A stretch of DNA of 64,000 bases, from assembly GCF_013167455.1 (NCBI RefSeq), contig NZ_CP038328.1; one strand, written 5' to 3'. Position numbers and translations under genes: made by a program. Below are positions 584 to 44,471 of the stretch, piece by piece; within the stretch, counting starts at the first letter, position 1; every line of letters begins with the position of its first letter. The notes beneath the pieces were generated by a model. That model worked only from the letters and a program-made list of their open reading frames with translations, had not been told where the DNA came from and searched no databases. The DNA is from Escherichia coli O157:H7. Lineage in GTDB: Bacteria > Pseudomonadota > Gammaproteobacteria > Enterobacterales > Enterobacteriaceae.

Positions 584-2656
<2,073 letters not shown>

Positions 2657-2663
2657 CTATTAA

Positions 2664-2682
2664 TTGGCTGATCGGACTTGTT
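2664..2682 (+). promoter_or_regulatory. FadR-type operator upstream of fabB
   Basis: ttggctgatcggacttgtt resembles the FadR consensus TGGTCNGACC core; lies about 70-85 bp upstream of the fabB ATG. Confidence 0.6.
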
Positions 2683-2684
2683 CG

Positions 2685-2700
2685 GCGTACAAGTGTACGC
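2685..2700 (+). promoter_or_regulatory. FabR-type palindromic operator upstream of fabB
   Basis: Perfect inverted repeat gcgtaca-ag-tgtacgc immediately downstream of the FadR-like site. Confidence 0.6.
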
Positions 2701-2748
2701 TATTGTGCATTCGAAACTTACTCTATGTGCGACTTACAGAGGTATTGA

Positions 2749-3969
2749 ATGAAACGTGCAGTGATTACTGGCCTGGGCATTGTTTCCAGCATCGGTAATA
2801 ACCAGCAGGAAGTCCTGGCATCTCTGCGTGAAGGACGTTCAGGGATCACTTTCTCTCAGGAGCTGAAGGATTCCGGCATGCGTAGCCACGTCTGGGGCAA
2901 CGTAAAACTGGATACCACTGGCCTCATTGACCGCAAAGTTGTGCGCTTTATGAGCGACGCATCCATTTATGCATTCCTTTCTATGGAGCAGGCAATCGCA
3001 GATGCGGGCCTCTCTCCGGAAGCTTACCAGAATAATCCGCGTGTTGGCCTGATTGCAGGTTCTGGCGGCGGTTCCCCGCGTTTCCAGGTGTTCGGCGCTG
3101 ACGCAATGCGCGGCCCGCGCGGCCTGAAAGCGGTTGGCCCGTATGTGGTCACCAAAGCGATGGCATCCGGCGTTTCTGCCTGCCTCGCCACGCCGTTTAA
3201 AATTCATGGCGTTAACTACTCCATCAGCTCCGCGTGTGCGACTTCCGCACACTGTATCGGTAACGCAGTAGAGCAGATCCAACTGGGCAAACAGGACATC
3301 GTGTTTGCTGGCGGCGGCGAAGAGCTGTGCTGGGAAATGGCTTGCGAATTCGACGCAATGGGTGCGCTGTCTACTAAATACAACGACACCCCGGAAAAAG
3401 CCTCCCGTACTTACGATGCTCACCGTGACGGTTTCGTTATCGCTGGCGGCGGCGGTATGGTGGTGGTTGAAGAGCTGGAACACGCGCTGGCGCGTGGTGC
3501 TCACATCTATGCTGAAATCGTTGGCTACGGCGCAACGTCTGATGGCGCAGACATGGTTGCTCCCTCTGGCGAAGGCGCAGTACGTTGTATGCAGATGGCG
3601 ATGCATGGCGTTGATACCCCAATCGATTACCTGAACTCCCACGGCACTTCGACTCCGGTTGGCGACGTGAAAGAGCTGGCAGCTATCCGTGAAGTGTTCG
3701 GCGATAAGAGCCCGGCGATTTCTGCAACCAAAGCCATGACCGGTCACTCTCTGGGCGCTGCTGGCGTACAGGAAGCTATCTACTCTCTGCTGATGCTGGA
3801 ACACGGCTTTATCGCCCCGAGCATCAACATTGAAGAGCTGGACGAGCAGGCTGCGGGTCTGAACATCGTGACCGAAACGACCGATCGCGAACTGACCACT
3901 GTTATGTCTAACAGCTTCGGCTTCGGCGGCACCAACGCCACGCTGGTAATGCGCAAGCTGAAAGATTAA
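2749..3969 (+). CDS. fabB: 3-oxoacyl-ACP synthase I (KAS I)
   Basis: 406 aa; active-site region [14 protein letters not shown] and C-terminal [13 protein letters not shown] typical of KAS enzymes. Confidence 0.97.
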
Positions 3970-10282: not shown

Positions 10283-10353
10283 AAAGTAACTCCGCGGTTC
10301 GACCACTTTTTTATCCAAAGTTTCGGGCTGTTATGTTTTAATGTGCAACATTC

Positions 10354-10437
10354 ATGGTCTGTTGGGGGCAAAAATGGCATTATGCGTCCCCAAAGATAAA
10401 ACTGGCATCGAACCAGGTTCAGACAGAAAGGTCCCTA
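10354..10437 (+). promoter_or_regulatory. accD 5' leader (in-frame extension of the track ORF, probably untranslated)
   Basis: Track ORF begins 84 nt upstream of the MSWIERIK start; AccD is reported to bind its own mRNA leader. Confidence 0.4.
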
Positions 10438-13350: not shown

Positions 13351-13714
<364 letters not shown>

Positions 13715-22035: not shown

Positions 22036-22929
22036 TCAGCGAACGACATCCGCCAGCGCCTCTTCTAAATCGTACCAGCGAAACGCAAAACCCGCTTCTT
22101 CCAGCCGTTTAGGCAGCGCGCGTTGTCCACCTAATACCAGTACTGAAGATTCGCCCATTAACAGCCGAATGGCGGTTGCGGGGACGCGCAAAATAGCCGG
22201 GCGATGCAGCGCATGACCGAGCGCATGGGCAAATTGTTCATTGCGTATCGGGTAGGGCGAAACCATATTAAATGGCCCGCGCAGCTCGTTATCCAGCAGC
22301 CAGAGAATGCCGTTGACCATATCATCGATATGAATCCAGGCCAGATACTGCCGACCGGAACCAATCGGCCCGCCCAGGCCAAGACGAAACGGCGGCAGCA
22401 TTTTACCGAGAATACCGCCATCCGGTGCCAGCACTACGCCGGTACGCAGCAGGCACACTCGCGTTTTGTCACTTTGCGCCCGACAGGCAATTTCTTCCCA
22501 GCGGGCGCAGAGTTTATGGGTAAATTTGTTATGCGGCGGTTCCTCTTCGGTAACCACCACTTCACCTAAGTCGCCATAATAGCCCGTTGCCGAGCCGGAA
22601 ATGAGTACCGACGGTGGCGTGTCGCTGGCATTAATCAAATCGACCAGTTTTTGCGTGATATTCCAGCGGCTTTGGCAGAGACGCTCTTTTTGCTCGTGAG
22701 TCCAACGTTTATCAGCAATCGGTTCTCCGGCCAGGTTGATTACCGCATCAATGCCGTTGAGGTTGCTTTGATCGGCAAGCCCTTGCCATAGTGTCACCCG
22801 AGGGCCGAGAACGGAACTGGCTTTCTGCGGGTTACGCGTCATTACCGTGATTTGATGGCCCAGCTCCAGCAAACGTGGAATCAAATGGCGACCAATTAAT
22901 CCCGTCCCTCCGGTGATCACTATGTTCAT
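22036..22929 (-). CDS. yfcH: Epimerase-family NAD-binding protein YfcH
   Basis: 297 aa; N-terminal Rossmann motif [12 protein letters not shown]. Confidence 0.92.
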
Positions 22930-26035: not shown

Positions 26036-27556
26036 TTAGTGGTAGCCCATCAACTGAGCGCCGATCACCACGACGCTGGACATAATAAACAGCAGTCCAA
26101 GCAGGGTCGCGCCCACCTTCAGCCAGTTACGGAAGTCCACCCGGCAAACACCGAGCGTCGCCATTAACGAAGCTGAGGTCGGGTAAATGATGTGACTGAA
26201 GCCATCACCAAACTGGAAAGCCAGCACGGTAACCTGACGGTTAACACCGACCAGATCGCCAAGCGGTGCCAGTAACGGCATGGTTAACGCCGCCTGACCA
26301 GAACCGGACGTCACGAAGAAATTAAATACCGCCTGGAAGAGCAACATAAACCAGGCCGCGACCGCGTTGTCCAGACCGCTAATGGCATTGGCAATGCTGT
26401 TGAGGATAGTATTTAACACGCTGGCATCACCCGCTTCACCATTACCGACCAGCAGCAAAATCCCTTTGGCGAAACCCACCAGCAGGGCAGGGGCGATCAT
26501 CATTCGCGCCCCTTCGGTGAAGGATGAAGCCATGGTATTAACCGTCATACCGTTAAGGCGGAAAACAACGCCGATGATGCCAATCACCAGACCCATGGTG
26601 AAGAACTGGCTGGCAATTTCTGGAATAAACCAGGCATTAACGATCACGCCCCAAATCACCCAGACCATTACGGCGGTCAGGACAATCAATACCAGCCAGT
26701 CACCAAAGGTAAACGGACGTTGTTCAACATCCGCCTGCTTTTCACGAAAGAAGCGGTCGGACTCATGCACGCGTGACAGAAGAGGATTCTTTTTCACTCG
26801 TGAGGCGTACACCATGGTAAAGATCAGGCCAATCAGAGTGGCGATAACCCACACCACGATGCGCAACCCGGAGCCAGAAAGCACCGGAACGCCGGCAATC
26901 CCCTGAGCAACGACCACACAAAACGGGTTCATCCACGAACTGGCAAAACCGATTTGCGTGGCAATATAGGTCACCAGGACGGTGGTAATACTGTCATAGC
27001 CCAGCCGGACCATTAGCGGTGCGATGATAATGGCAAAGGCGACGGCCTCTTCCCCCATACCAAATACCGCGCCGCCAAGTGAAAACAGAATAAACAGCGC
27101 AGGAATAAAGAGAATTTCATTCCCACGGGTATGGCGAATAAGCGCCAGGATACCGTTATCAATGGTTCCTGTACGCATCACAATGCCAAACGCGCCGCCA
27201 ATCACCAGCATAAACATGATGATGCCAACGGCTGTCCCGTATTTCGATCCTGAGGTTAACCCTTCAAACGGGAAGTTCATCAGGCCCGGGCGTTCATCGC
27301 CCGTCGTGAACAGCTGTACGCGGTGATACTCAGGTTCGCCTGCTTCGTTAGTCAGAAGGCGAAATGAGTGTGGATCTACGACTTTGCGTGTTTTTGTTTG
27401 ACCATCAACCTGATACTGCACTTCCTGACTGTCAAACATCCCCACCGGAACTACCCAGGTGGCAAGGCTGGTTAAAATAGCAACAAAAAAGATAATCACC
27501 AACGTATCGGGCATTGCCCATCTTCTTGTTGGTTTGGATTCAGTGATTGCGGACAT
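26036..27556 (-). CDS. yfcC: Putative inner membrane transporter YfcC (C4-dicarboxylate anaerobic carrier-like)
   Basis: Track ORF 513 aa; likely start at the ATG giving 506 aa (MSAITESKPTRRW..); polytopic membrane protein. Confidence 0.9.
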   Translation of the reverse strand: MSAITESKPTRRWAMPDTLVIIFFVAILTSLATWVVPVGMFDSQEVQYQVDGQTKTRKVVDPHSFRLLTNEAGEPEYHRVQLFTTGDERPGLMNFPFEGLTSGSKYGTAVGIIMFMLVIGGAFGIVMRTGTIDNGILALIRHTRGNEILFIPALFILFSLGGAVFGMGEEAVAFAIIIAPLMVRLGYDSITTVLVTYIATQIGFASSWMNPFCVVVAQGIAGVPVLSGSGLRIVVWVIATLIGLIFTMVYASRVKKNPLLSRVHESDRFFREKQADVEQRPFTFGDWLVLIVLTAVMVWVIWGVIVNAWFIPEIASQFFTMGLVIGIIGVVFRLNGMTVNTMASSFTEGARMMIAPALLVGFAKGILLLVGNGEAGDASVLNTILNSIANAISGLDNAVAAWFMLLFQAVFNFFVTSGSGQAALTMPLLAPLGDLVGVNRQVTVLAFQFGDGFSHIIYPTSASLMATLGVCRVDFRNWLKVGATLLGLLFIMSSVVVIGAQLMGYH

Positions 27557-44419: not shown

Positions 44420-44471
44420 CCGAATTTCGATTAACGCTCAGTCTCTGACTGAGAAAACTGGAAGCATGCTA

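Follow-up and report, generated by a model that had tools for sequence, protein, structure and literature searches.

FadR is a GntR-family protein that acts as a dimer, and FabR is a TetR-family repressor. The FadR and FabR sites of fabB in E. coli K-12 were reportedly described by Campbell and Cronan in 2001, Zhang et al. in 2002, and Feng and Cronan in 2009 and 2011. The dual control by these regulators sets the ratio of unsaturated to saturated fatty acids in the E. coli membrane. According to later papers that cite the original binding studies, fabA and fabB are activated by FadR, which is released by long-chain acyl-CoA, and the binding of FabR is increased by unsaturated acyl-ACP and decreased by saturated acyl-ACP. 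The same papers place a FabR box next to the FadR site, name FabR as the main regulator of fabB and FadR as the main regulator of fabA, report direct repression by FabR in Salmonella on the basis of ChIP, and disagree on whether FabR requires a ligand for binding. They also state that wild-type FadR shifts a fabB probe, whereas the W60G mutant does not, and that a fadR mutation lowers fabB-lacZ expression 2 to 2.5-fold. The transcription start site (TSS) of fabB was mapped by RACE to 37 bp upstream of the ATG, which agrees with earlier primer extension. In addition, CpxR was described as a third, acid-stress input to the fabB promoter (PMC7083825).

A related promoter is found at fabA. The E. 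coli fabA promoter (AACTGATCGGACTTGTTC-AGCGTACACGTGTTAGCT) shares with fabB both the two-box architecture and the 1-bp junction, and the 16 bases CTGATCGGACTTGTTC are identical in both promoters. The FabR boxes agree at 14 of 18 positions, and a -10 element starting with TAT follows directly after the FabR box in both (TATCCT at fabA and TATTGT at fabB). In contrast, the fabA FabR box is imperfect (GCGTACA-cg-TGTTAGC), whereas that of fabB is perfect, and fabA has extra start sites. The FadR repressor operators of the fad regulon (fadBA, fadL, and fadD) are bound by the same protein at the same 17-bp dyad as the fabB site. However, the fab sites read TGATC...GACTT, whereas the fad-regulon sites read TGGTC...GACCT. 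The fab sites lie at about -40 and activate, whereas the fad sites overlap the TSS or the core promoter and repress. A further FabR box, AGCTAACAGGTGTTCACT, is known at yqfA/trhA and has the ACA-nn-TGT core and terminal T in common with the fabB box. Mutation of ACA in this box abolished FabR control. The yqfA/trhA box differs from that of fabB in three ways: its arms show far less symmetry, no FadR site adjoins it, and its target belongs to another class of gene, encoding a PAQR-family membrane protein.

The locus under study lies in the 158-bp intergenic region (2591-2748) between the divergent genes mnmC and fabB, as determined by RefSeq mapping and open reading frames. The window is the whole 64,000-nucleotide stretch of E. 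coli O157:H7 DNA that was analyzed, and all positions refer to it. The features of the locus are as follows.

584-2590, minus strand: mnmC, the divergent neighbor, with a GTG start at 2590 (NCBIfam match, mapped RefSeq annotation, and translation).
2630-2655, no strand assigned: CpxR footprint, -119 to -94 from the ATG (coordinates converted from PMC7083825).
2666-2682, no strand assigned: FadR operator, a 17-bp imperfect palindrome, GGCTGATCGGACTTGTT, centered at 2674 (published probe, matrix, and conservation).
2678-2683, plus strand: weak -35-like hexamer TTGTTC, 3 of 6 matches to TTGACA, within the right half of the FadR site (putative, from geometry).
2684-2701, no strand assigned: FabR operator, the 18-mer GGCGTACAAGTGTACGCT (inverted repeat, published probe, matrix, and conservation).
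2701-2706, plus strand: -10-like hexamer TATTGT, 4 of 6 matches to TATAAT (putative, from the published TSS).
2712, plus strand: fabB TSS, to within 1 nt (literature).
2749-3969, plus strand: fabB coding sequence, beta-ketoacyl-ACP synthase I, 406 aa, the gene regulated by the operators (open reading frame, NCBIfam, and RefSeq).

The letters of 2664-2700 are attggCTGATCGGACTTGttcgGCGTACAagTGTACGC. The original prediction had placed a FadR-like string and a palindrome here and assigned them to the fabB promoter, and both strings were present at exactly the positions it quoted. The assignment to fabB was confirmed by several results. The open reading frame at 2749 matched the NCBIfam model NF005935 (beta-ketoacyl-ACP synthase I) with 804.8 bits against a cut-off of 630, and RefSeq labels this frame fabB in each E. 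coli genome matched. An 801-bp query over the region was present in 5,425 of the 5,426 complete E. coli genomes, annotated fabB/mnmC, and was 100% identical to many E. coli chromosomes. These were O157-type and other strains, not K-12. Positions 2656-2712 match the K-12 EMSA probe "fabB_ec-BD" (TCTATTAAATGGCTGATCGGACTTGTTCGGCGTACAAGTGTACGCTATTGTGCATTC), with T for A at 2664 as the sole difference. This mismatch lies 2 bases upstream of the FadR 17-mer and outside both operators. The published probe carries a marked FadR site and a marked FabR palindrome, which supports the predicted dual control by an activator and a repressor. In an alignment with MG1655, the intergenic region differs at 2616 (A for G) and 2664 alone, and neither position falls in a core element of FadR, FabR, or CpxR. 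The K-12 fabB promoter is the same locus in another strain background, with an identical 36-bp composite, -10 region, 5'UTR, and start codon, and none of the differences falls in the operators.

The feature is almost certainly the native sigma-70 promoter of E. coli fabB with two adjacent, experimentally characterized operators. The probe identity, matrix scores, site positions, deep conservation, and presence of both regulator genes were computed here, while the binding of the two proteins, whether they activate or repress, their ligands, and the TSS are known from the literature. It is the textbook fabB promoter and is already known, so its recognition from the raw letters of the genome is a positive control of a classic dual control system and not a discovery. 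The analysis adds only quantitative context and makes no open question newly testable.

The fabB ATG lies 67-83 bp downstream of the FadR site. Counted from the published TSS, the site spans -46 to -30 with its center near -38, a location that suits activation (about -40). Its FadR-like string, ctgatcggacttg, occupies 2668-2680. The FadR core TGATCGGACT fits TGGTCNGACC at 8 of its 10 positions, or at 7 of 9 if only specified bases are counted. When the site is compared with the 17-bp consensus aaCTGGTCnGACC(T/A)Gtt, 10 of the 12 core positions written in upper case agree, leaving two core departures, and 12 of all 16 specified positions agree. Bases 3-17 are the same as in the fabA FadR site. 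A FadR matrix was built from five fad-gene sites (fadL1, fadL2, fadD1, fadD2, and fadBA) taken from a published primer table, with fabB data excluded, and it was symmetrized because FadR binds its dyad as a dimer. With this matrix, position 2666 ranked first among approximately 128,000 positions, and 0.05 equal or better scores were expected per shuffled window. The un-symmetrized five-site matrix was not discriminating, since it placed the fabB site at rank 4 with 5.3 equal or better scores expected by chance. The regulator gene fadR lies outside this window and is present in 5,422 of the 5,426 complete E. coli genomes. FadR has been reported to affect many fab genes, and the region upstream of accD (10283-10437) was therefore examined; no FadR-like site was found there, and the best matrix score was below 0. 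Other matrix matches, at 22064 (yfcH), 19002 (hisQ), 19390 (hisM/hisQ junction), 27305 (yfcC), and 56331, were taken as chance because they lie within coding or unrelated DNA and score well under the fabB site.

Within the FabR operator, positions 2685-2700 form a perfect 7-2-7 palindrome, GCGTACA-ag-TGTACGC, whose two 7-nt arms are 100% complementary and are separated by a 2-nt spacer. The published FabR core ACAnnTGTnnnnT occurs exactly within the 2684-2701 box, which extends from about -28 to -11 when counted from the published TSS. A symmetric FabR matrix was derived from the boxes of E. coli fabA, Shewanella fabA, and E. coli yqfA/trhA, excluding fabB data. The wild-type yqfA/trhA box was recovered from K-12 for this purpose. 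The matrix ranked 2684 first in the window, with 0.03 equal or better scores per shuffled window. The original prediction had called for scans with both matrices and had held that it would fail if neither motif scored above background; both sites ranked first with the symmetric matrices. Among the 5,426 complete E. coli genomes, 5,424 carry the regulator gene fabR. Two weak FabR-like matches were also seen and were judged to be chance. These were CGCGTACAGCTGTTCACG at 27305-27322 (score 12.6-14.3), within the yfcC coding sequence, and GTCTTACAGGCGGTAGCT at 2602-2619 (score 11.4), in the mnmC leader and not conserved across species.

One base, the C at 2683, separates the FadR 17-mer from the FabR 18-mer. 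The palindrome had been predicted to follow the FadR-like site immediately. Four bases (ttcg) stand between the two strings as quoted in that prediction, and the adjacency holds by the published definitions of the sites, which leave a gap of the single C. When both matrices were scored jointly at the fabA spacing, the fabB site reached 33.7. The runner-up in the window scored 5.2 in the same orientation and 7.8 with the arrangement reversed, and the best score from 100 shuffles was 16.5. A comparison with the fabA promoter had also been suggested, and it showed the same spacing: the fabA composite 36-mer matched the window at 2666 with 30 of 36 identical positions, against 20-21 for the next best positions and 24 for the shuffle maximum.

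Within E. coli, a BLAST search with the 36-mer 2666-2701 gave a 100% identical match in each of the 5,425 genomes with the locus, and it also matched the paralogous fabA copy in every genome. A control of equal length in the 5'UTR (2707-2742) was variable in 223 genomes (approximately 4%), and an upstream control (2630-2665) was variable in at least 1,905 genomes (at least approximately 35%). A fabA-type composite copy at the 3' end of ycbZ was seen on a few plasmid-labelled records, namely NZ_OZ547091.1 (H17, 262-kb) and three other places. Wrongly assigned fragments of the chromosome, or large chromids, may account for these copies.

Conservation between species was studied with a FabB search of genome contigs, which gave 80 species-level loci from Enterobacterales, two Orbales, and one Alkalimonas. 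The mean identity to the window was calculated per segment from an alignment of 74 distinct upstream sequences. It was 0.95 for the FadR 17-mer, 0.94 for the FabR 18-mer, and 0.96 for the first fabB codons. The 10 bp directly upstream of the FadR site had a mean identity of 0.42, and the 5'UTR at 2707-2735 had 0.47. Across Enterobacterales, the composite operator hardly varies. The FabR box was found in 78 of the 80 species. Among these 78 species, its positions G2, TACA, TGT, and GCT are invariant, giving the pattern ACA..TGT....T, which matches the published core. The central dinucleotide varies (AG in 43, AC in 26, TC in 6, and GG in 3), and the mirrored positions 4 and 15 are degenerate, with G/T and C/A, respectively.

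A chance resemblance with no regulatory function would be suggested by the frequency of palindromes with 7-nt arms, which occur about every 2 kb in the window, and by the two consensus mismatches of the FadR core. Generic palindromes were not significantly enriched, with 33 perfect repeats (7-nt arms and 0-4 nt spacers) in the window compared with 23.6 ± 5.0 in dinucleotide shuffles. However, the joint matrix score is far beyond that of the shuffles, the sequence is invariant in the 5,425 genomes and is kept across Enterobacterales while its flanks diverge, and the operator sequences are shared with experimentally bound probes. The probability of a chance resemblance is accordingly negligible.

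The putative core promoter elements overlap both operators. The first T of TATTGT is the last base of the FabR 18-mer, and the spacer between the -35-like and -10-like hexamers is 17 bp. Positions 2678-2683 are conserved at 96-100% (75-78 of 78 species). A scan of 2500-2800 for a consensus sigma-70 promoter and for terminators returned nothing at the thresholds used, and the -35 and -10 assignments therefore rest on the published TSS. The empty promoter scan fits a weak, activator-assisted promoter. The T at 2678 is common to fabA and nearly invariant across species; this C-to-T departure from the fad consensus may persist because the base is also part of the TTG of the -35 element.

This overlap raises the question of whether the conservation reflects the core promoter alone, that is, the fabB -35, spacer, and -10 or the divergent mnmC promoter, with the resemblance to FadR and FabR sites being incidental. 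Promoter elements are conserved in themselves, the -35-like TTGTTC forms part of the right FadR half-site, and the end of the FabR box reaches into the -10. Spacers, however, are not usually constrained in sequence, yet 2684-2700 is approximately 94% conserved with dyad symmetry. Conservation is just as strong in the left FadR half-site (2668-2676), which is located upstream of the -35. Moreover, both boxes recur at the unlinked fabA and the FabR box also at yqfA, and EMSA and genetic data exist. It is thus very improbable that core promoter elements explain the conservation by themselves.

The palindrome could also be read as a nucleic acid structure (an RNA hairpin, terminator, attenuator, or DNA cruciform) and not as a protein site. 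A 7-bp stem is possible, with -9.8 kcal/mol and z = -2.4, but such hairpin potential is trivial for any palindrome. The palindrome lies upstream of the fabB TSS and is therefore not in the fabB mRNA, and the likely mnmC promoter stands between it and mnmC. No T-run follows it, the terminator scan was empty, and no Rfam family matched. The species comparison also bears on this point. Positions 4 (G/T) and 15 (C/A) vary independently, with their four combinations seen 53, 13, 8, and 4 times, and pairing is broken in 21 of the 78 species, which suits a degenerate protein half-site and not a stem. A search for covariation of the mirrored arm positions gave no real signal (4 T/A double changes compared with approximately 2.6 expected). 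The likelihood that the palindrome serves as such a structure is minute, and a FabR operator is the preferred reading.

The two operators differ in their persistence across lineages. The FadR core is kept in 73 of the 78 species, among them Edwardsiella with a 1-bp insertion at the junction. In the other five, the region approximately 75-110 bp upstream of fabB keeps the FabR box but not the FadR core: another sequence takes its place in Rosenbergiella (L044 and L054), and it is missing from the Orbales Gilliamella and Schmidhempelia (L068 and L082) and from Alkalimonas (L081). The change in Rosenbergiella looks like a secondary loss within Erwiniaceae. The FadR half is thus evolutionarily separable and dispensable, whereas the FabR half persists. 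This agrees with earlier published work, according to which the FadR site at fabB is not conserved in Vibrio and Shewanella. Both boxes are lost in two insect endosymbionts, Candidatus Gullanella endobia (L073) and the secondary endosymbiont of Heteropsylla cubana (L074). In these two loci the operators have decayed to AT-rich sequence while fabB itself is kept, as would be expected if reduced genomes lose this regulation.

The absence of variation in 5,425 genomes and the identity of the FadR core in 67 of the 78 species led us to consider whether the 36-bp composite of FadR and FabR sites is one indivisible dual-coding module and not two independent degenerate sites. The identity of the FadR core includes the two "non-consensus" bases that form the -35-like TTGTTC and are common to fabA. 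The constraint exceeds what either degenerate matrix needs, which hints at RNA polymerase contacts or at an interplay between FadR and FabR at the fixed 1-bp junction. Such indivisibility is a tentative and rather unlikely reading. If it were true, only the fine-scale picture would be new, the absence from Vibrio and Shewanella being published. The mildly new observations are descriptive, namely a composite that is invariant in the 5,425 genomes and a lineage-specific loss of the FadR half with the FabR half retained.

Under the preferred reading of a native promoter with two adjacent operators, the regulation of fabB can be proposed as follows. FadR bound at 2666-2682, with its center over the weak -35, would raise transcription. 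Long-chain acyl-CoA derived from exogenous fatty acids would free FadR from the DNA, and activation would be lost. FabR bound at 2684-2701 would fill the spacer between -35 and -10, touch the -10, and compete with RNA polymerase, so that repression presumably occurs through steric occlusion of the spacer and the -10. Unsaturated acyl-ACP or acyl-CoA would strengthen FabR binding, and saturated species would weaken it. Because FabR binding would respond in opposite ways to these two classes, fabB output would track the unsaturated:saturated ratio. The same two-box module with the same spacing drives fabA.

The CpxR footprint lies further upstream and contains a GTAAG-n5-GCAAA box at 2637-2651. 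Only its proximal half (GCAAATTT) is conserved across species. This element, at 2647-2654, is nearly invariant in Enterobacterales, whereas ATCTTA at 2622-2627 shows moderate conservation. Both belong to a second conserved block (2622-2655) upstream of the FadR site, and read on the minus strand they give TTGCGC-N17-TAAGAT (2650-2622), with TAAAAT in many genera. This arrangement is plausibly the divergent mnmC promoter, which would overlap the CpxR footprint. The distal half-site GTAAG (2637-2641) is the same in K-12, and GCCAG is found in its place in one E. coli locus (L003) and in E. albertii (L004). The CpxR box may be strain-variable, because of these GCCAG variants and because at least 35% of E. 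coli genomes carry a different upstream 36-mer there.

Elsewhere in the window, three tandem copies of the Rfam family naRNA4 (REP-derived, nucleoid-associated RNA) were found on the plus strand at 13405-13657, in the dedD-cvpA intergenic region, with 72-83 bits. The Rfam nuoG RNA cis-regulatory motif was found on the plus strand at 44422-44464, within the nuo operon, with 50.3 bits.
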